64,000 nucleotides of DNA from a virus (lineage: Duplodnaviria; Caudoviricetes). The notes under the pieces were generated by a model, which was given only the letters and a program-made list of their open reading frames with translations, was not told the DNA's origin and did not search any database. The stretch lies in the IMG/VR virus record IMGVR_UViG_3300042350_003801; one strand, given 5' to 3'. Each line of letters starts with the position of its first letter. Positions within the stretch are counted from its first letter, which is position 1. Shown here one piece after another: positions 879-31,677 of this stretch. Made by a program: the position numbers and the translations under genes.

Positions 879-1301
879 TCACTCTGGTATATTTAAATAA
901 TCTTCAGCCATATGTATTTTTACTTTTTGATTACTTTTCGGTTTGGATAATCTCAGTCCAAGCCATTTTTCACACTTGTTGGGGTTAACATAATAGCATT
1001 TATCCGTATCTGGACAATAAATGCACATTAAATCTAATTCATTTTTATCGTAATCTTTATGATGTGAGCCATTTCTGTCGGCCCAAGATGTTCCAAAACG
1101 TACATTAATTACGTTATTATTAGCCGCTCTATATTTAACTTGAACTCTTTTAAAAATGCCGTCTTTATACGCGACTAAATCAAAAGATTCGTGCTCTGTA
1201 TGCGGGGTAAGAATTAAATAACCCTTTTCATACAAATCAAGTTGGGCTTTTAACACACCAAGGTCGCCTTTATTTTTAGTATGGTGATACCTCATACTCA
1301 T
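879..1301 (-). CDS. free-standing PD-(D/E)XK homing endonuclease, I-Ssp6803I-like (PDDEXK_5)
   Basis: TKNKGDLGVLKAQLDL..GY, FDLVAYKDG..RVQVKY motifs; AAGGAG RBS. Confidence 0.8.
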   Translation of the reverse strand: MSMRYHHTKNKGDLGVLKAQLDLYEKGYLILTPHTEHESFDLVAYKDGIFKRVQVKYRAANNNVINVRFGTSWADRNGSHHKDYDKNELDLMCIYCPDTDKCYYVNPNKCEKWLGLRLSKPKSNQKVKIHMAEDYLNIPE

Positions 1302-1402
1302 ATTCTCCTTTATTAAGTTCGCATTTCTATTTATAAAAATGGGGAGGTTGAACCTCCCCGGAGCCTTAAAGGTGCGAACTTAATAAGGCATCTCTATTTA
1401 TA
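1302..1402 (-). promoter_or_regulatory. double late promoter with 14-bp complementary arms and an internal hairpin controlling the endonuclease
   Basis: TATAAATA at 1395-1402 and 1328-1335; inverted repeat 1310-1323/1373-1386; GGGGAGG/CCTCCCC hairpin 1341-1359. Confidence 0.7.
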
Positions 1403-1420
1403 GTAGAAGAATAATTTCAA

Positions 1421-1705
1421 CGAGAACGGCGTGACTCGAACACGCGACTTACTGCTTAGCTTACCACTACGGATTTCCCCGCCATTTCTGTTTGTGGTCT
1501 GGACCATCTCTTCATCTTATCTTACGACTTAGATGCTTCCCGTATGGCCTCTACACGTTCAGGATTTCTCCCGCTTCGCTCGGGATTGCCATAGTCTTAC
1601 GACTTTAGGGTTCCCCGAATTTGAGAAGTTACATTTATGAAGTTTCCCTCGTAAAGCTCCTATTTTCGAAGGCAGTTGTTCTAAATCCAACTGAACTACG
1701 TTCCC
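1421..1705 (-). tRNA. trnR: tRNA-Arg(UCU), intron-containing (exons 1669-1705 and 1421-1459)
   Basis: Joined exons give GGGAACG-TA-GTTC..GAAC-A-ACTGC-CTTCTAA-GCAGT-AAGTC-GCGTG-TTCGAGT-CACGC-CGTTCTC-G. Confidence 0.9.
1460..1668 (-). mobile_element. group I self-splicing intron, 209 nt, no ORF
   Basis: 5' splice after U, terminal G; P AAAUUCGGGGAA, Q GGCAAUCCCGAGC, R GUAGAGGCCAUACGG, S AAGAGAUGGUCC; P7 GGCCAU/AUGGUC; P1 CUU|C..GGAG with U-G pair; P10 UAG/CUA. Confidence 0.9.
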
Positions 1706-1837
1706 ATAATAAAACCCGAAATAACTCGGATTATGGTTTATTTAGTAAGAATCAAAAACACCCCAAATAACACAAAACGCTCCGGACGCTGAACCGGCAC
1801 AGTTAAGCACCTGAACACCTATTACAATAAGTCAGGC

Positions 1838-4623: not shown

Positions 4624-4836
4624 AGTTATTTAAAATCTACAATGCAATCAAGAACGACGAAAATTTGGCAGTAACTACCAAACATAAACCGATTCCAAAA
4701 ATCAAGGCACTAACTCCTGCTGCAATTTTAATAAATTCCATCATTTGTGGTTAAAGGCATCACTAACATACATCATTTATTGGCCGATGGACCGTTCAGT
4801 GGACACTTCTTAAACTGTCCATAAATAGAAAGAAAA

Positions 4837-5295
4837 ATGTGGCTGTATAATAATCAAGTTCTTGAAACTGTTCCAGAAGGAATGGAGGGGTTTGTATATC
4901 TTATTGAGAACTTAACAAACAATAAGAAATACATCGGTAAAAAGCACTTCTGGGAAAGGAGAAAGGACCGTAAGACGGGTAGAAGAAAGACAAAAGAGAG
5001 CAGTTGGCAATCTTATATGGGGAGTTGCGATGAATTGATTGCCGATTATAAAGAACTAGGAAGGGTAAACTTCAGGAAAACTATTCTTTATCTTTGCCCG
5101 CATAAGAAATCAATGTCTTATTTTGAAACATTAGAGCAGTTCAAAAGAGATGTTATTATGCGCGAAGATTATTACAATACTAATGTTGAAGGCAAGTTTT
5201 TCACTTCAGAGAAAGACAACATTTACAGTAAGGTTTTAATATCTGAAACGGTTCAAGACCAATCTTCAAACATAAATCCACTTGCAGTTGAATAG
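4837..5295 (+). CDS. GIY-YIG nuclease family protein
   Basis: GFVYLIENLTNNKKYIGKK motif; CATAAATA late promoter upstream. Confidence 0.8.
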   Translation: MWLYNNQVLETVPEGMEGFVYLIENLTNNKKYIGKKHFWERRKDRKTGRRKTKESSWQSYMGSCDELIADYKELGRVNFRKTILYLCPHKKSMSYFETLEQFKRDVIMREDYYNTNVEGKFFTSEKDNIYSKVLISETVQDQSSNINPLAVE

Positions 5296-7143: not shown

Positions 7144-8334
7144 TTAAAGTTTAAAGTTTGCAAAGGCTGTAGGACTAACATCTTGTTTAATTCCACCAAC
7201 AACATAACTCGAGATATTCTCTTCTTGTGGTGGAACTTGTTCATTTCTACTATTTAACCATTTCTCGGTCCAGGGTAATGGATTATTCTTAGATGAAATA
7301 TCATACAGGGGTTTAAATCCAATGGCTCGCATTCTACGATTGGCAATCCATTCAATGTAATTGCAAAGTAGTTTTTCGCTGAGTCCGATCATTGATCCAT
7401 CTTTAAAAAGGTAATGAGCCCAATTTTTTTCTTCATTTACCGTATTTTCAAACATACGGTAACAAAGTGCTTCTTCTTCTCTGGCTATCTGAACCATATC
7501 TAGGTCATCGCCATTTCTCCATTTAGTGAGGATATTCTGAGTTAAGAATAGATGAAGTCTTTCATCAAGGGCAATTTTAGAAATAATTTTTGCCGAACCT
7601 TCCATTAGTTCGCGTTCGCCAAATGCGAAACTACAGGCAAAAGAGATATAAAAACGAATGCCTTCTAAAATGTTAACATTCATCACCGCCCGGTAAAGTT
7701 TCCGCTTTAGTTCATAAAGCTCTTGCTTTCCCAATGGAACTCCTTCATTATTAAATTTCCATAGTTCAGATGAACCATACTGTTGAGCAGAATTAATAAA
7801 ATCATCATAAGATGCAGTAACACTAGATGCTCGCTCTAGAATCTTCTCATCATCAATAATGTGGTCAAACACTTCTGACGGGTTGCTGGTATAGACATTC
7901 TTAATAATGTATGTATAAGAATAACTATGAACCATCTCCATAAACTGCCAGGCAATCATACAAGATTCTAGTTCTGGCAAAGAGCAATAAGGAATGAAAG
8001 CCATTCCTGGACCTCTTCCTTGAACTGAATCCAACATAATCTGATACTTCAGATTGGAAGTAAAAATATGCTTTTGATATGGAGAAAGTTTTAAATAATC
8101 AGTGCGATCTTTTTGAAGTGGAAACTCTTCTGGTCTCCAAAATGCACCCAGTTGATCCTGCGTAAGGCGATAAAATGCAGGATATTTATGGACATCATAT
8201 CTTTGAACTCCTAGGGGTTTCCCAAAGAACATTTTCTCTTTTGTTGTATCTACGTTTGTTGAATTAAAAACGGTCATTCCCGTAACCTCAGATGCTACAT
8301 CCTTCACAATAATCCTCTCCTTCACTTGTTTCAA
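7144..8334 (-). CDS. nrdB: ribonucleotide reductase class Ia beta subunit
   Basis: AFWRPEE, LDSVQGR, EMVHSYSY, EGIRFY, DERLH iron-centre motifs. Confidence 0.97.
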   Translation of the reverse strand: MKQVKERIIVKDVASEVTGMTVFNSTNVDTTKEKMFFGKPLGVQRYDVHKYPAFYRLTQDQLGAFWRPEEFPLQKDRTDYLKLSPYQKHIFTSNLKYQIMLDSVQGRGPGMAFIPYCSLPELESCMIAWQFMEMVHSYSYTYIIKNVYTSNPSEVFDHIIDDEKILERASSVTASYDDFINSAQQYGSSELWKFNNEGVPLGKQELYELKRKLYRAVMNVNILEGIRFYISFACSFAFGERELMEGSAKIISKIALDERLHLFLTQNILTKWRNGDDLDMVQIAREEEALCYRMFENTVNEEKNWAHYLFKDGSMIGLSEKLLCNYIEWIANRRMRAIGFKPLYDISSKNNPLPWTEKWLNSRNEQVPPQEENISSYVVGGIKQDVSPTAFANFKL

Positions 8335-11086
8335 TAGTATTAATCAAATTTTCTAGTTCGTTTACCTGTTCAAGTTCCACTTCAGCAGAATCAGAATCCT
8401 TCTTACTATCGTATGTATTATGATAATACAGCGTCTTGACCCCCATCTTGTATGCATAAAGAACTTCGCCGAGAATAAGACTCATTGGGACTTCCTTATC
8501 GGGGAACATCTCTGGATTGTATGCAGTATTGGCACTGATTGACTGGTCAATAAACTTTTGAAGAACCGCAACAATGTTAAGATAACCAATATTAGACGGG
8601 GCATCCCATAGTAGACTATAATTATTCTTTAAAGATGAATATTGTGGAACAATTTGCTTAAGTCTACGCTTAACCGATAGATGTTCTCTTGGCATTTCAA
8701 TACCATTTGGGGCATTTAACATCAGGCTTGATGATTCACCGGGCATCGCACAACTGAGAGTAGAATGTCTCAAGCCATATTGTATAATGTCTTGCCGCAG
8801 TTGTTCCCAATCGTGCTGTAGTGGAACCGAACAAATTTCATCAACATCTTTCTTGTAAGTATCAATAGGAAGAATACCATCTGCATACTTCGTTCTACCA
8901 AAGTATTCACAATGGCCGCGTTCTTGTGCAATCTTATTAGATGCCCTTAAAAGGAAGTATTGAATACTTTCACCCAGTCTATGGCAACTATCCCAGGCCG
9001 ATTGTTCGTGATAAGATTGACCAAGTTTAGCAAGATAGTGAGCCAGACCCATAATACCAATTCCTAGAGACCTTCTCGCCCTTGTTGAAATTTCCGCAGC
9101 CTTAACAAGATAATCTTGCCATTCAATCAACTCTTCAAGAGCCCTTACAATCAATTCACAGCACTCCTCTAGTTCCTTATCGTTTTTGATTGTTCCAACA
9201 TTCAGTCCTCCGAGAATACACAAAGAAATTTCTGCCAGTTCATCTTCAAGGCTTTGAATAGGATGAACCGGCAAAGTTACCTCGACACAGTTATGAACCA
9301 AAATTCCATTTGCAAAGAAGTTATGCGTTCCCTCTACTGTAATGTCATAGACTGGGATTTCTTCTTCTAGGTATTCAATAGTTCTATATTTATTTTTAAC
9401 TTTTTTAATTCCATCATCCCATAGAACAACTAGCTGATCTGTCCCCTGAATATCTTTTGCCTCAACATACCCACGATTTTCTGTGAAGACTTTATGCTCA
9501 GGTGTTAAAATAACCCGACCATCATTAAGAGACAATACTTTCGCGCTGGGAGATGTTTGAGCAAATGCTGTGATTGGACTCCAAACTCTTTCACCTTTTT
9601 CAGTATCGTAAGAAAGAACTTGAATTTTAGGAACATCGCTTTCTTTGCGAAATGAAACCTCTCTTTCTCTATCGAGAAAATAATCCTCCAACTCTCGAAT
9701 CTCAATTTCAGCACTGCATAGTTCCCAACAGGAACCAATGGATACTGGATACTCAATTCTAATTTTGGTGTCACCAGCAACACAGAGGTTGCTCATACTA
9801 ATATGGTCTTTAAAAGAACTATGAGTATTGCAATGGTCAATATTCATAATGTAAATGCGACCAGTTTCGCTTCTTTCTTTGAGAATATTCAAAATAAGTT
9901 CCTGGGCTTTTACTTTACGCTTAGGAATAGTCGGATCATTCTCATATTGAACATAAAGGTCATCAAAACGTTCAGTTCCAAACGATTCTTCTAGATTGGG
10001 AACGTGGTGAGGAGAAAATAGAGTAATTTCTCCATCTTGAATATAACGCTCATAGAATAGTTTTGAAATCTTGATTGCATAATCAATATTTCTCACTCTG
10101 TTTTCATCATTGCCCTTATTATTCTTAAGGACAATAATATCTTCAATCTCTTGATGCCAAATGCTAACGTATGCCGTCATACTCCCTTTTCTTACGCCAC
10201 CTTGATGGCAAGATTCAAGAGACGCCTGAAACTTTTTAAGATATGGAATCAAACCCGATGAAATAACTTTACCCTTACGAATTTTACTCCTAATGCCACG
10301 AATTTTACTAACGTCAATACCAACACCGGCTCCACCTGAAACGTATTTCATCATTGCTCCATCAGATGCAATGATGCTGTCAAGTGTATCATCTACATCA
10401 ATGAGACAACAAGATGCAGCCTGCTTATCTGGCGTTCTGACACTTGCCATTACGGGTGTGGGCAGATTAATCTTATGCTTACTTACAACCTCATAATAAC
10501 GCTTAACATATGATAGCCTTACATCTTTTGAATAATTTGCAAAGATTGTAAGAGCAATCATAATATACATAAACTGAGGCGTCTCGAAGACCTGTTTAGT
10601 ATCACGGTCTTGAACAAGATATTTATCTTCAGCCTGCTTAAGACCAGCATAGGTGAAAAGAAAATCTCGGTCGTGGTCAATGAAAGAATTTACGGTATCA
10701 ATTTCTTCTTTTGAATATTTGGTGTAAATATCTGCATCATAATATTCTCGGGCAATGCAAAAATTAATATGTTCTTCAAGATGTGGCATATCAATACGGC
10801 CACCGTATAAACGCTTACGAATAGAAAAAAGAAGCAATCTAGCCGCAACATATTGATAATTTGGATGGTCCAAACTGATTAAATCCGATGCAGACTTAAC
10901 AAGAATCTGCTGAATTTCATCAGTTGTAATTCCAGCATAAAACTGAAGACCAGAGTTCATTTCAATCTGCGAGGCAGATACATTGGCCAAACCAACGCAA
11001 GCACAATTCACCATATCGTGAATTTTTTCTAGCATCAATGGCTCAACATTGCCATTGCGCTTAACTACAGTAATACCATTGCTCAT
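8288..11086 (-). CDS. nrdA: ribonucleotide reductase class Ia alpha subunit with intein
   Basis: ATP cone, PTPV, SCCL, SNL-[intein]-CVE, C-terminal CEGC; ATG at 11086 overlaps the primase stop. Confidence 0.97.
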   Translation of the reverse strand: MSNGITVVKRNGNVEPLMLEKIHDMVNCACVGLANVSASQIEMNSGLQFYAGITTDEIQQILVKSASDLISLDHPNYQYVAARLLLFSIRKRLYGGRIDMPHLEEHINFCIAREYYDADIYTKYSKEEIDTVNSFIDHDRDFLFTYAGLKQAEDKYLVQDRDTKQVFETPQFMYIMIALTIFANYSKDVRLSYVKRYYEVVSKHKINLPTPVMASVRTPDKQAASCCLIDVDDTLDSIIASDGAMMKYVSGGAGVGIDVSKIRGIRSKIRKGKVISSGLIPYLKKFQASLESCHQGGVRKGSMTAYVSIWHQEIEDIIVLKNNKGNDENRVRNIDYAIKISKLFYERYIQDGEITLFSPHHVPNLEESFGTERFDDLYVQYENDPTIPKRKVKAQELILNILKERSETGRIYIMNIDHCNTHSSFKDHISMSNLCVAGDTKIRIEYPVSIGSCWELCSAEIEIRELEDYFLDREREVSFRKESDVPKIQVLSYDTEKGERVWSPITAFAQTSPSAKVLSLNDGRVILTPEHKVFTENRGYVEAKDIQGTDQLVVLWDDGIKKVKNKYRTIEYLEEEIPVYDITVEGTHNFFANGILVHNCVEVTLPVHPIQSLEDELAEISLCILGGLNVGTIKNDKELEECCELIVRALEELIEWQDYLVKAAEISTRARRSLGIGIMGLAHYLAKLGQSYHEQSAWDSCHRLGESIQYFLLRASNKIAQERGHCEYFGRTKYADGILPIDTYKKDVDEICSVPLQHDWEQLRQDIIQYGLRHSTLSCAMPGESSSLMLNAPNGIEMPREHLSVKRRLKQIVPQYSSLKNNYSLLWDAPSNIGYLNIVAVLQKFIDQSISANTAYNPEMFPDKEVPMSLILGEVLYAYKMGVKTLYYHNTYDSKKDSDSAEVELEQVNELENLINTIETSEGEDYCEGCSI
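9290..9784 (-). mobile_element. mini-intein in NrdA (165 aa, no endonuclease)
   Basis: CVAGDT...TPEHKVFT...VYDITVEGTHNFFANGILVHN/C. Confidence 0.93.
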
Positions 11087-12057
11087 TTTTTCTTCCATTC
11101 GTTAAAGTTGAGATTTGCTAAAAGACCAGTATAGATGTTTTCTTTAATTATCTGGTTTACATCCAAACCAGAAAGAACCATTAGATTAACGTCCTTTTGT
11201 TTTACGTTTTTGGGCCAGATTACTAATGGTAGATTTTGGGCAATGGTTCTTTCCATTCTATCAACAATCTCTTTATTTCTGGGTTCGTTATCGTAAATGT
11301 AAATTGGTTGTTTGATATTTAGTTTTGCTAGGTCTACATCCGCTCCACACATCGCAATGGAGTTACTGATAAAATAGGAATCAAATGGACCCTCAAGAAT
11401 GTAAACCGGTTCATTATTATCTATGCTATCATAATTGTATACCTTTGGGGCATTTTCATCTAGCATAATCGTGATATATTTAATTGTAGATTTACCCAAA
11501 GTTCTTCCCTGAATACCAATTAGCTCTTTATGGTAGTAAAGAGGAATGATTAGTCTTTCTTCTTCGTAAAACAATGCCCGTTTATTAAACGTTGGCTTTA
11601 AAGTGTTGACCCACTTTTTAAACTCTTTGGCATAATAAAACTTTGTTGCATCTATATTTCTAGATTCAAGATAAGACCTCGTTATTTCTTCTTCGGATGC
11701 TTTTGGTAGGTTTATTCTTGCTCTAAAAATTGGCTTGGGATTTTCAAACTTGGGTGCAGTTGTTACGAAGTTCTTACCGGTTAGTCCTTTCTTATATTTT
11801 GCTAAAGAATAGTCTTCATGTAGAGTGGGGTCTACTTGTTTTAGATAATTATTAAAAGAAACATTTATGCCACAGTTATGGCACTTATAGTTTGTGTTAT
11901 TTCCCTTTTCATAAAAGTAACCACGAGCTTTTGTTTTATTTTTCTGGGAATCTCCGCAGATATTACATCTACAATTATAGAGGCCGGGTTTTATCTTTTT
12001 AAATTTTTCTAAGCGTGTTGATAAGAGATTAATATAATAGTCGTCTATGGCATCCAT
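11083..12057 (-). CDS. 61: DNA primase gp61
   Basis: CRCNICGDS..CHNCG zinc finger, EGPFDS Toprim motif. Confidence 0.95.
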   Translation of the reverse strand: MDAIDDYYINLLSTRLEKFKKIKPGLYNCRCNICGDSQKNKTKARGYFYEKGNNTNYKCHNCGINVSFNNYLKQVDPTLHEDYSLAKYKKGLTGKNFVTTAPKFENPKPIFRARINLPKASEEEITRSYLESRNIDATKFYYAKEFKKWVNTLKPTFNKRALFYEEERLIIPLYYHKELIGIQGRTLGKSTIKYITIMLDENAPKVYNYDSIDNNEPVYILEGPFDSYFISNSIAMCGADVDLAKLNIKQPIYIYDNEPRNKEIVDRMERTIAQNLPLVIWPKNVKQKDVNLMVLSGLDVNQIIKENIYTGLLANLNFNEWKKK

Positions 12058-22103: not shown

Positions 22104-23429
22104 TTATTGTTTTACAAACAATTTATCTCCAACCGATAAGCCACTGAGTATATTCCTTTCCCCCATAACAGTTGGAAAAATATGTTTATTTGAACAACGT
22201 ATCTTTTTACCAGATTTCGTTGTAATTTCGTAAACTTGTTGTTTCTCAACCGCAAAAACATTTTTAACTATAACCGGTTTTGTATGAGATTCAATAATGT
22301 CACCCACTCTAATGTCTTTTATTGTAACAATTTCTCCTGAAGATTTAGTGACGTTTGTGTTTAAACTCAAACACCTATTTGTTTGAGTTGCACTAATAAC
22401 CGGAACATCAAACTCCACGGCAATTGAACGCACTTCTTCTGCAATAGATTTTACGATTGTATAGCTATTTGCCTGGCCATTATTTTTATAACGGCTGGAA
22501 GCACAGATATTTAGATAGTCAACGATAATCACATCAGGAGTAAATGACTTCTTCAGTTTTAGTTCATTGATAAATGCCCTAAAGTGACCGGCGTGTGCCG
22601 ATACAGGAGGATACTCTTTAACAATTAATTTGCCTTGGGTTTTGGAAGATAGGCGCTTAACCTTTGAATCAAAATCAGATTTTGCAATCTTTGCGAAATC
22701 TTTAATGTCTACATCAAGAAGATTTGCATCAATTCTCTGAGCAATCTTTTTTTCCGACATTTCAAGAGTAATGTAAAGAACATTCTTACCTTGAAGAAGA
22801 TATGATGCAGCAAAGTGGCACATTACCAAACTTTTTCCTATACCCGTAGAAGCAATGAGAACCGTAAGTGTTTTAGCTAAAAGACCACCATCAGTAATCC
22901 TATTAAAATAAGACAAGTCAAACGGTAGTTTTTCTTCTTTTAGAATATAAGATTCATAACGAGCATCTGAATCTTCAAGATAATCGTGGCCAATATGACT
23001 ATCAAAACTTACGGCAAGAGCATCACTAAGAATTGATGGAATTGCTTCTTTTGTAAGTTTTGAGTCGCTACCATCCGCAATCTGAATACATTCACGAATG
23101 GCAAGATAAACTGCCCTATCTTTACACCATTGTTCAGTTGTTTTTAGTAGCCATTCTTTCTCTGCTGGTTCATCGGAGAGACCAGAAACAATCTCTACAA
23201 TATTTGCAAACGACTCCTCGTTTAAGTCGGTTCTTTTTTCCAACTCAATATAAAGAGATTCTTGAGTTGGAAGTGCATTGTATTCAACAACGAATGATGA
23301 AATTTCATCATAAAGGACCTTTTGCAAGGAGTCATTAAAGTATTCAGTTTTGATAAACGGAAGAACTTTTCTTGTGAAGTCTTCATTGTATATTAAGTTT
23401 CTAAGAATTAGTGCTTCAGTTGTTTCCAT
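22104..23429 (-). CDS. 41: gp41 helicase N-terminal fragment with split-intein IntN (89 aa, 22104-22373)
   Basis: ASTGIGKS Walker A, IIVDYLNI, SATQTNR/CLSLNT...CSNKHIFPT. Confidence 0.95.
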   Translation of the reverse strand: METTEALILRNLIYNEDFTRKVLPFIKTEYFNDSLQKVLYDEISSFVVEYNALPTQESLYIELEKRTDLNEESFANIVEIVSGLSDEPAEKEWLLKTTEQWCKDRAVYLAIRECIQIADGSDSKLTKEAIPSILSDALAVSFDSHIGHDYLEDSDARYESYILKEEKLPFDLSYFNRITDGGLLAKTLTVLIASTGIGKSLVMCHFAASYLLQGKNVLYITLEMSEKKIAQRIDANLLDVDIKDFAKIAKSDFDSKVKRLSSKTQGKLIVKEYPPVSAHAGHFRAFINELKLKKSFTPDVIIVDYLNICASSRYKNNGQANSYTIVKSIAEEVRSIAVEFDVPVISATQTNRCLSLNTNVTKSSGEIVTIKDIRVGDIIESHTKPVIVKNVFAVEKQQVYEITTKSGKKIRCSNKHIFPTVMGERNILSGLSVGDKLFVKQ

Positions 23430-29081: not shown

Positions 29082-29347
29082 TATGCAGCTCCAGTTTTTA
29101 GAAATTCGGGTAGACCCTTATAAAGGCTATAGGCATACTGCCGTTGCTCTTCGGTTAGTGAATCTTGATGCAGTTCACTAAACTCCCCGGCGGGCTCTTC
29201 TCCTAAAAGGTCCATAACAATGTTTGGCTTCCAGTTGTCATATGCAAAAGGATTCTGCCAAGTTGAGTCTTCGGTTAGATTGTTATAAAAAACTGTTGCA
29301 AGTGTAGCCAGGTCGTCGGTTTGATTTCGGTTCATAATTAACTCCAT
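29081..29347 (-). CDS. hypothetical protein
   Basis: ORF track. Confidence 0.5.
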   Translation of the reverse strand: MELIMNRNQTDDLATLATVFYNNLTEDSTWQNPFAYDNWKPNIVMDLLGEEPAGEFSELHQDSLTEEQRQYAYSLYKGLPEFLKTGAA

Positions 29348-29368
29348 TCGATTTCATAGTAAAAAACT

Positions 29369-30565
29369 CTATTGATTTTCTAGACGCTTCACAGCAGATG
29401 CTAAATGGTGAAAATCACCGCTCAGTCTTAATTCCGCTCCACGCCCGTAATCGGCGTACTCCGCCGATGAAATTTCTTTATCGGTTAGGCTGCGCCAACC
29501 TTCCTTTAAGATATTGATAGAGGCATTTAAGTCTCTATCATGTTTTGAGCCGCAAGACGGACAAGTCCATTCCCGAATGTTTAGAGGCATCTTGTCTTCC
29601 TTGTAACCACAAGAACTACAAGTCTTACTAGAGGGAAAGAAGCGGTTAATCTTAACCAAGACTTTTCCATACCAGTTGCATTTATACTCTAACATAGAAA
29701 CAAAAGTAGACCAGGCTGCATCAGAAATAGACTTCGCCAGTTTGCGGTTTTTCAGCATTCCAGAAACATTAAGGTCTTCAAGAACTATTAAATCAAATGT
29801 GTTCACTAAAGCGGTAGACACATTATGAAGAAAATAAATTCTTGAATTGGTAATGAATTCGTGTACTTTAGCAACTTTTATTCGTTGCCGGTTGTAACGA
29901 TTACTACCTTTAGTCTTACGACTTAAATGTTTCTGTGCTTTTTTGAGTTTCGCTTGGTTCTTGCGAAACCACTTGGGGTTGTTGATAACTTGACCATTTG
30001 AAAGAATGAACAAGTCTTTAATGCCCAAATCAATACCTACTACTTTACCCGTAGAGGGTATTGGATTGAGTTCTTGCTTAATCAAGATAGAGACAAAATA
30101 TTTTCCGGTTGGTGTTTTAGAAACAGTAATGCTCCTGAAGTCTGCTTCTTCGGGAATTTCGCGGTCAATAACAACTTTAACCCAACCAATTTTTTCAAGT
30201 CTAACTAAAGAGTTTTTTTGGTCAAGTTTAAACCTTTGATTATTGAGTCTAAAAGACTGCCTATTTGATTTCTTCTTGTATCTGGGTCTTCCGAGTTTAA
30301 CCTTTCGTTTCTTGTTGAAAAACTGTTTCTTAAATTCAATAAAGTCATCTCTTTTTTGTTGAAGGGTAGAAGCAGAAACCTCTTTAAGAAACTCAAATTC
30401 AGGAGTGTCTTTAAGCGTCTTCTCGGTAATAACTTCCTTGGAGTTGTTATTGAAGTTTTCAACAAGTTTATTCCAAACAAACCTGCAACAGCCGAAAGTC
30501 TTTGCTAGTAGAATTTCTTGCTCTTCAGACGGATAAATCCGAAACTTGTATGCTTTTAAGTGCAT
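29369..30565 (-). mobile_element. tnpB: TnpB RNA-guided endonuclease (IS200/IS605 family), solo
   Basis: [12 protein letters not shown], RuvC GIDLG / VLEDL / DRDLNASIN, CxxC-CxxC zinc finger. Confidence 0.93.
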
Positions 30566-30684
30566 CCGCTCTGTTTATTGGTTGGCAATACTATTTAGTA
30601 AAGTTTTATTTTATAAGGGGAGAATTGCTCCTCCCCACCTGAAAAGCGCCAACCAACCAGGCATCTTTATTTAGTGAAGTTTTA
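30566..30684 (-). promoter_or_regulatory. double late promoter with complementary arms and an internal hairpin upstream of tnpB
   Basis: ACTAAATA at 30668-30675 and 30592-30599; arms 30647-30657/30577-30587; GGGGAG/CTCCCC hairpin 30617-30636. Confidence 0.65.
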
Positions 30685-30729
30685 ACAACAAAAAACATAA
30701 TGCACAATATAATTTTCAAGTAAGTTAAG

Positions 30730-31677
30730 TTAACCAGAAAACTCCAATTCATACATAATTTCAGTTACACAAGACATCATATTGATTTCTTGGTCTGCAA
30801 CTTTCGTTGCTAAATCCTGGTATTTTGCCAGAATCACAATACAAGGAGGAATCGTTGCTTTAACGATTTCTTCATTTTTCCATAACTCATCAAAGATTTT
30901 TCTGATTGTAATGGATGGGTCGTTATCAATGTTCTGAATAACCCATTTTCGCACATTAGCATAGTTCTTGCTCTTGATGTGCTGAAATAATTCAATAACT
31001 GAAACATCGGATGTTGTTCCAAGAATACCAACATCAATGATACCGTTTCTTGCATATCCCTGAAGTTCTAGAAGTGTTCTCCTAAAATCAGGATAATATT
31101 TACCAACATAAGATGCAACAACTTTTTTGTCAAACTCAATATTCTCAGTTTCTAAAATCGTGCAAACACTCTTAAAGAATCGGGCAAGAATCTTTTGTTT
31201 TTCGTCAGACGGAAATGTGAAGTCCTTATTAATACACCTTGAGCACAGGGCTTTGTCAATTCGGTTCTTGTAATTACAAGTGAAGATGAAGACACAATTT
31301 GATTGAAAGTCTTCAATAAATGCCCGAAGTGCAAGTTGTGCATCGTGAGTGAGATTGTCGGCCTCGTCAATCAGTAGAAACTTCTTCCCGGTTGATAAAA
31401 GAGAAATCGTAGAAGCATATGATTTAACTTTATTGCGAATCACATCAATGCTTCTTTCTTCACTTCCATTAATCTTTATGAAGTCTCTACCTAGTTCATC
31501 TGCAAGCGCAAGCGTTACTGATGTTTTTCCAGTTCCAGACGGGCCAGAAAGGAGAAGATTTGGGACATTTCCAGAATCCCTCAGTTCAATAAAGTATGAC
31601 TTTAATTGTTCAGGAAGAATACATTCATCTACTGTTTTTGGCCTATGTTTTTCAGTGAAGAGGAACTCATTGTTCAT
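30730..31677 (-). CDS. 44: clamp loader large subunit gp44
   Basis: EKHRPK, GPSGTGKT, IDEAD, YPDFRR. Confidence 0.95.
   Translation of the reverse strand: MNNEFLFTEKHRPKTVDECILPEQLKSYFIELRDSGNVPNLLLSGPSGTGKTSVTLALADELGRDFIKINGSEERSIDVIRNKVKSYASTISLLSTGKKFLLIDEADNLTHDAQLALRAFIEDFQSNCVFIFTCNYKNRIDKALCSRCINKDFTFPSDEKQKILARFFKSVCTILETENIEFDKKVVASYVGKYYPDFRRTLLELQGYARNGIIDVGILGTTSDVSVIELFQHIKSKNYANVRKWVIQNIDNDPSITIRKIFDELWKNEEIVKATIPPCIVILAKYQDLATKVADQEINMMSCVTEIMYELEFSG

Follow-up and report, generated by a model that had tools for sequence, protein, structure and literature searches.

Homing endonucleases and TnpB proteins must stay at a low level if the phage that carries them is to be spared, and the T4 way of achieving this is a hairpin combined with a late promoter. 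Just upstream of an endonuclease gene on the minus strand of the 64,000-nucleotide stretch of viral DNA analysed here (IMG/VR record IMGVR_UViG_3300042350_003801, referred to as the window), such a combination is joined by a second promoter-like box and a terminator-like hairpin. The question raised by this locus (site 1) is whether the added elements release a small RNA that represses the nuclease in trans, as a preliminary description of the sequence had proposed, or whether the whole arrangement works within a single transcript.

A composite leader upstream of an endonuclease gene

Pfam matches to the Gp23 capsid protein, a family B polymerase, the gp44 clamp loader and an intein-containing ribonucleotide reductase identify the window as part of a T4-like phage. 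Its sequence occurs in lake-water metagenomes and its nearest named relatives are freshwater Synechococcus phages; a megablast search of 20 kb against named phages gave no match. The gene behind site 1 (879-1301, minus strand) encodes a PD-(D/E)XK homing-type endonuclease of the I-Ssp6803I family (Pfam PF11645, E 3e-36). Contigs from RNA libraries (two runs) cover 843-1059 along with a foreign intron, the cassette lying outside them, and the 843-1059 contig may be DNA carry-over. Upstream of site 1 is a tRNA-Arg(UCU) gene (1420-1706, minus strand) split by an ORF-less group I intron of 209 nt (1668-1460; Rfam RF00028, 66 bits), which ARAGORN calls as tRNA-Arg(tct) once the intron is removed and which ends about 18 nt upstream of the cassette. 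A split tRNA gene next to a free-standing endonuclease gene is reminiscent of "collaborative homing", in which an intron and an endonuclease encoded nearby take part. On four other contigs (L001-L004) relatives of the PD-(D/E)XK protein also adjoin tRNA genes, yet lack the cassette, which indicates that the latter was not inherited with this protein family. In L001 an intron-less tRNA-Arg(UCU) gene lies just upstream of the endonuclease homologue, and in L002 the tRNA is interrupted after CTT.

The window is rich in selfish elements. Pfam detects intein-splicing domains in two minus-strand ORFs: that for the large subunit of ribonucleotide reductase (8288-11098) and, at its end, one for a DnaB-like helicase (22104-23429). 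In each of the four runs, contigs of very high abundance match about 34 nt at 614-647, and their flanks resemble 23S rRNA (GCGTAATAGCTC). The segment falls in the non-coding gap of 450 nt that separates the endonuclease gene from tRNA-Asp; it is probably a fragment of an rRNA exon and may be the remnant of a homing site.

The exact promoter box of site 1, TATAAATA, is present only four times in the window. The looser [A/C]TAAATA is the common box, enriched in non-coding DNA (22 of 53 motifs in the 13% of window bases that are non-coding) and found 16 times at no more than 150 nt upstream of a gene on the same strand. As a motif it agrees with the late promoter reported for cyanomyoviruses, NATAAATA (PMC2984593); in T4 the late promoter consists of nothing more than a TATA box, placed roughly one helical turn ahead of the start (PMC2988020). 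Elsewhere in the window, a CTAAATA box, a hairpin and a U-rich run (1713-1744, minus strand) stand just before the 5' end of tRNA-Arg, and a similar box (about 487-493) precedes tRNA-Asp. A SegE-like GIY-YIG gene at 4837 (region 4819-5295, plus strand) has a CATAAATA box 8 nt ahead of its leader, with neither a significant hairpin (z = +1.0) nor a cassette.

Read along the minus strand from 1402 to 1299, the cassette contains every part named in the preliminary description, in the order given there. It begins with a late-promoter box (P1, TATAAATA, 1402-1395) whose predicted start, G1389, lies 6 nt past the box. GAGAU separates P1 from a GCCU at 1389-1386, which leads into arm 1 (UUAUUAAGUUCGCA, 14 nt, 1386-1373), a perfect complement of 1323-1310; arm 1 is followed by CCUU and then by UAAGGC at 1368-1363. 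In the minimum free energy (MFE) structure of the predicted 55-nt RNA, the 5' end of the P1 transcript forms a stem-loop (SL1, 1389-1363) in which GCCUUA (1389-1384) pairs with UAAGGC (1368-1363) over 6 bp, the loop holding most of arm 1. Next comes the hairpin GGGGAGGU/ACCUCCCC (stem 1359-1341, whole feature 1359-1335), with 8 pairs, 6 of them GC, a UCA loop and an AUUUUU tail. It was described earlier as terminator-like, and a terminator scan agrees, the GC-rich stem-loop being directly followed by a U run as in Rho-independent terminators.

A second late-promoter box (P2, again TATAAATA, 1335-1328) is nested between the arms. Its predicted start is G1322, base 2 of arm 2, and GAAA lies between the box and this arm (UGCGAACUUAAUAA, 14 nt, 1323-1310), which by sequence and fold would be the 5' end of the late mRNA. 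The Shine-Dalgarno sequence AAGGAG (1310-1305) comes next: the 14-bp helix formed by the arms ends at it, and its AAGG can pair with CCUU at 1388-1385, leaving one bulged A, in the MFE structures of both the read-through transcript and the RNA dimer. The ATG at 1301 is 3 nt from the Shine-Dalgarno sequence and a second ATG, at 1295, is 9 nt from it. Since the latter has the better spacing, and since the first ATG is missing from a lake variant of site 1, the true endonuclease start is probably at 1295. The 131-nt stretch as a whole folds at -39.1 kcal/mol (z = -4.5), and none of 200 shuffled sequences folded as well. No match to a sigma70-type early promoter was found within 1299-1402, both boxes being of the late type.

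A portable module with covarying arms

The motif GATGCCT-N-GGGGAG is found twice in the window, where 0.01 occurrences would be expected. Among viral contigs, a pattern covering the 5' half of the cassette matched at least 115, and a second pattern that did not require P1 matched at least 119. At least 100 distinct copies stand ahead of nuclease genes, in contigs of lake T4-like phages and in the cultured Synechococcus phage S-SRM01 (NC_070963), which has a single copy, at about 192.42 kb, ahead of an HNH gene. Among the matches listed, 102 copies were parsed after removal of duplicates; as the search patterns demanded CYUUUNAGG, the conservation of that motif is built in by the search. The genes behind the cassette encode GIY-YIG, HNH, TnpB and PD-(D/E)XK proteins and members of other "homing endonuclease" families, including, among the matches listed, six tnpB genes and one PD-(D/E)XK gene, that of site 1. 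The cassette had been put forward as a possible dedicated repressor of one nuclease; judged by its distribution, it is instead a generic portable module common to at least five nuclease families.

The parsed copies carry at least 37 distinct arm pairs, with a median contiguous duplex of 13-14 bp between cognate arms versus 6 bp between non-cognate ones. Their geometry is nearly constant, arm 2 beginning 4-5 nt past the P2 box in 96 of the 102 copies and ending 6-15 nt before the ATG. One copy (L219) has arms and a Shine-Dalgarno sequence identical to those of site 1, together with a different hairpin and an HNH gene, a combination which implies that the module has been exchanged between unrelated genes. 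Only 4-5 contigs have two or more copies, always with different arms, and five large contigs have one copy each. In S-SRM01 the annotated start of the "homing endonuclease" CDS falls inside the cassette hairpin (L305, 1545-1600), and the ATG that follows arm 2 and the Shine-Dalgarno sequence, at about position 1600 of L305, fits better as the predicted start.

In L167 and L189 only the 5' half remains: the copy breaks off within the terminator hairpin and unrelated sequence follows, as if a gene had been lost or exchanged at the cassette. These and the other solo 5' halves (L160/L233) appear to be remnants of deletions or copies in decay. The contigs carrying them have no second arm that matches, arm 1 itself being the one hit, nor do they contain a solo small-RNA gene with a distant target.

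To follow the arms through the family, pairs were counted in 43 copies aligned in one register (alignment A4), the first MAFFT alignments (A2 and A3) having mixed arm registers. All ten pairs of the arm helix have changed on both sides and 97.9% of the cells are paired, against 26-41% when the partners are slid; none of 500 shuffles reached the observed score, and RNAalifold returned the same helix unaided. Site 1 itself has a variant, on a contig from another lake data set, which differs by A1381C with U1315G and by G1379A with C1317U, two exact compensatory double changes within the arm helix; on the same contig the tail AUUUUU has become UUUUUU, a longer U run. Covariation throughout the family and compensatory changes at site 1 together show that the arm pairing is under selection. 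Covariation is, however, blind to whether the arms pair in cis or in trans.

SL1 and the terminator hairpin are maintained as well. In the 43 copies, SL1 has 95.7% of its cells paired, and 29 copies have G.U as its first pair. Across the family, the fifth stem pair is G-C in 65 copies, A-U in 8 and U-A in 2. The stems of the terminator hairpin covary across copies. When the sense duplex is compared with its antisense counterpart, it is longer in 58 copies and shorter in 28. The G.U pairs favour the sense RNA, over DNA or the opposite strand, as the molecule on which selection acts.

The second copy in the window (30674-30563, minus strand), located by motif search and sequence, lies ahead of a tnpB gene (29369-30565, minus strand) with HTH, OrfB_IS605 and Cas12f1-like TNB domains (Pfam). 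It consists of a P1 box CTAAATA (30674-30668), SL1 (30662-30637) with arm 1 (30656-30647), a hairpin (30636-30617), a P2 box CTAAATA (30598-30592) and arm 2 (30587-30578), followed by the ATG at 30565. The arms differ from those of site 1 and are still complementary. The earlier remark that the same design recurs before tnpB thus holds for the cassette as such, but the hairpin has no U run after it and, unlike that of site 1, does not have the form of a Rho-independent terminator.

The insertion of this tnpB gene separates the clamp-loader gene gp44 from the gene that follows it. The unit (29346-30752, minus strand) sits at the very end of gp44, of which some 15 nt are found on both sides of the insert, and a relative (L035, 3430-3460) shows the empty site; the right end of the unit, TTACTAT, is kept in six other copies. 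All tnpB orthologues with 80-96% identity, at six other insertion sites, have the cassette, with covarying arms, and the more distant tnpB relatives (about 53% identity) have none. In this tnpB lineage P1 is kept and an A-rich tract replaces the U run after the hairpin. P1 can therefore persist without an obvious terminator and, because the U tract is absent, the production of a discrete RNA at the tnpB copies is doubtful.

One lock or two

The case for a functional upstream unit begins with P1. Among 95 copies located with a search pattern that left P1 out, 88 have an [A/C]TAAATA box at -13 to -7 from CCTG, each position of the box being 96-99% conserved while the adjoining spacer varies. The flank upstream of P1 is at background composition, so that conservation begins abruptly at the box. 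Under the T4 late-promoter spacing rule the predicted P1 start is, across copies, a purine which is also the first base of SL1. At the other end of the unit, a GC stem runs into UUUU or UUUC in most copies. About a third have only UU ahead of the P2 box, so that termination is probably partial and read-through would be common. Taken together, P1, SL1 and the terminator plausibly fit an antisense RNA, about 55 nt long, that is closed at its 5' end and presents the arm in a loop. Its predicted target appears accessible, the first 24 nt of the P2 mRNA being predicted unpaired, and the predicted pairing between the two RNAs reaches the Shine-Dalgarno sequence. This pairing would also be specific: the two cognate combinations gain -14.4 and -12.4 kcal/mol, the crossed ones -1.8 and -3.6 kcal/mol.

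We tentatively favour, at somewhat short of an even chance, a reading of the cassette as a two-level portable 5' control element of mobile nuclease genes in freshwater T4-like cyanophages. Its first level, a lock in cis on the established principle, is very probably real. Any transcript containing arm 1, whether read through from the upstream tRNA or begun at P1, would fold arm 1 onto arm 2, the adjacent 5' CCU would pair with the Shine-Dalgarno sequence, and the nuclease would stay untranslated. P2 would start within the first bases of arm 2, leaving only the late mRNA with a free ribosome site. For the second level, P1, SL1 and the terminator would form a tiny late transcription unit releasing an RNA of about 55 nt, with SL1 closing its 5' end and the loop displaying arm 1. 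This RNA would bind the P2 mRNA at its single-stranded 5' end, beside the Shine-Dalgarno sequence, re-impose the lock and so cap nuclease synthesis late in infection.

The steps of this second level are not equally secure. That P1 is active and a discrete short RNA made at site 1 has, in our estimate, slightly better than even odds; that the RNA represses in trans is a more tentative proposition, falling a little under even. Also somewhat below even odds is the fullest version of the proposal, a self-contained riboregulator in which a covarying pair of 10-14-nt arms, in at least 37 variants, would set specificity and limit nuclease or TnpB synthesis in trans. The trans-acting RNA of about 55 nt envisaged in the preliminary description survives in part. 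In its favour are the P1 spacing (88 of 95), SL1 placed at the predicted start, the terminator and a cognate pairing gain of 12-14 kcal/mol; on the other side stand the tnpB copies, which lack the terminator U tract, and the weight that has to be given to the cis lock acting by itself.

Under that last reading, the arms would pair only inside a single transcript, P1 would serve as a further late promoter and no RNA would act in trans. The T4 precedent works without any trans factor (PMC2988022), the tnpB copies keep P1 in spite of having no U run, and many of the terminators look weak. Moreover, the MFE structure of P1 read-through transcripts is the full lock, and the terminator tail abuts or overlaps the P2 box, where a terminating polymerase would sit on P2. 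P1 could then serve to make read-through RNA that is deliberately untranslatable and that, for tnpB, could feed guide-RNA production or downstream genes; alternatively, its firing, with termination just before P2, could dampen P2 by transcriptional interference. What such a scheme leaves unexplained is why SL1 should covary, have the predicted P1 start as its very first base and hold the arm in its loop. It also offers no reason for having a terminator and a mask together, and a masked late transcript would add nothing beyond the P2 transcripts, except at tnpB. We regard it as a genuine but minority possibility, roughly one to be backed in a third of such cases.

A short RNA could also act positively, its pairing at the 5' end shielding the late mRNA from 5'-end-dependent decay by RNase E. 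Arm 2 is indeed the extreme 5' end of the predicted mRNA, and RNA duplexes are reported to protect mRNAs from RNase E in cyanophage infection (PMC3113571). The duplex, however, extends into the Shine-Dalgarno sequence, which predicts repression, and within one transcript this pairing is what makes up the known repressive lock; a protective role is improbable. Selection might instead act on the DNA, the cassette being a recombination repeat like the PeSL elements of T4-type phages (discussed below), the left end of an IS200/IS605 element or an invertible promoter with inverted repeats. Such readings draw on the portability of the cassette, which joins unrelated genes, on the abrupt onset of conservation at the P1 box, on the truncated copies broken inside the hairpin (L167 and L189) and on the fact that the cassette constitutes the whole left flank of tnpB. 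Yet the G.U pairs favour a sense RNA, the geometry is tied to promoter boxes, Shine-Dalgarno sequence and ATG, and the cassette contains no sigma70-type early promoter. As to the particular candidates, an IS605 left end, with GCCU as cleavage site and AGGU as guide, was rejected because homology runs upstream through P1 at six insertion sites and because the right end of the tnpB unit has no related hairpin; an invertible promoter was rejected because the metagenome contigs show no strand-switch joint at the cassette and there is no evident recombinase. It may well be recombination that moves the cassette, but this would leave the covarying arms unexplained, and we consider selection at the DNA level very unlikely to account for them.

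Relation to known systems and implications

Ribosome-site masks with a nested late promoter are documented in the T4 family, as the preliminary description had stated for T4 endonucleases, for I-TevI, I-TevII, I-TevIII, segB and Aeh1 mobE, and also for T4 e, soc and 49 (PMC2988022). As in those cases, a hairpin would hide the ribosome site of a homing endonuclease on upstream transcripts, and a late promoter inside the hairpin would yield a late mRNA without the 5' arm, in a T4-like host phage. The features recognizable here are the T4-like host, a helix abutting the Shine-Dalgarno sequence and, as a motif only, a late-promoter box between the arms. The cis part of the cassette, a masking helix plus a nested late promoter, accordingly appears to be the established T4 mechanism. 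The cassette differs from the T4 masks in that its 5' arm has a conserved late-promoter box of its own, a covarying 5' stem-loop and a terminator, and in being a sequence-conserved portable unit shared by at least 100 genes from at least five nuclease families.

The proposed action in trans has its closest parallel in RNA-OUT of IS10, a small stem-loop RNA whose loop pairs with the extreme 5' end of RNA-IN and blocks ribosome binding. In both systems the loop of a small stem-loop RNA targets the 5' end of a mobile-element mRNA, although for the cassette this is predicted. RNA-OUT, however, is made from the opposite strand and overlaps its target, whereas the candidate RNA of the cassette is encoded upstream on the same strand, is a prediction, and owes its complementarity to an inverted repeat. 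The cassette would thus work like the opposite-strand antisense systems yet not be a member of them. The left end of IS200 combines a terminator hairpin, a stem-loop that sequesters the Shine-Dalgarno sequence and the antisense RNA art200. Here too a terminator would block incoming transcription and RNA structure would hide the Shine-Dalgarno sequence of a mobile gene, and the cassette likewise flanks tnpB on the left; IS200, in contrast, has no late promoters, and art200 is antisense. Ends of IS200/IS605 elements carry similar subterminal hairpins on both sides, while the right end of the tnpB unit has no GGGGAG-type hairpin. That the cassette also heads genes outside insertion sequences likewise argues against its being such an end.

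Two phage systems invite comparison as well. The PeSL of T4-type phages is a cassette made of an early (sigma70) promoter and a stem-loop (PMC2839356, PMC4122927). Like it, the element described here is a short, conserved composite of promoter and stem-loop that lies beside variable genes and marks points of exchange; it differs in having two late boxes, complementary arms and a Shine-Dalgarno sequence, with no sigma70-like promoter, and so does not belong to the PeSL class. CfrI of cyanophage S-PM2, an RNA of about 225 nt, is reported to be antisense to an endonuclease gene and psbA, its function being given as unknown (Millard et al. 2010, as cited in PMC2984593). It too is a small RNA of a T4-like cyanophage tied to a free-standing homing-endonuclease gene, and it has no relation to the cassette in sequence or architecture. 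A literature search found no description of the cassette. What is new is that a conserved P1, a covarying SL1 and a terminator have been added to the known T4 mask, the whole being packaged as a portable module.

The T4 logic for keeping mobile nucleases in check has thus been made into an exchangeable module that serves unrelated nuclease families, including an RNA-guided one. In practice, the cassette offers a simple sequence tag by which mobile nuclease genes can be spotted in metagenomes, and its presence in the cultured phage S-SRM01 makes the small-RNA idea directly testable. If the predicted RNA is made, it would give T4-like phages their first dedicated small RNA for regulating homing endonucleases, and the family of cassettes would constitute a natural set of matched RNA/leader pairs. 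Should the riboregulator reading prove true, a phage could also shut off the nuclease of another phage infecting the same cell, provided that the two share an arm.
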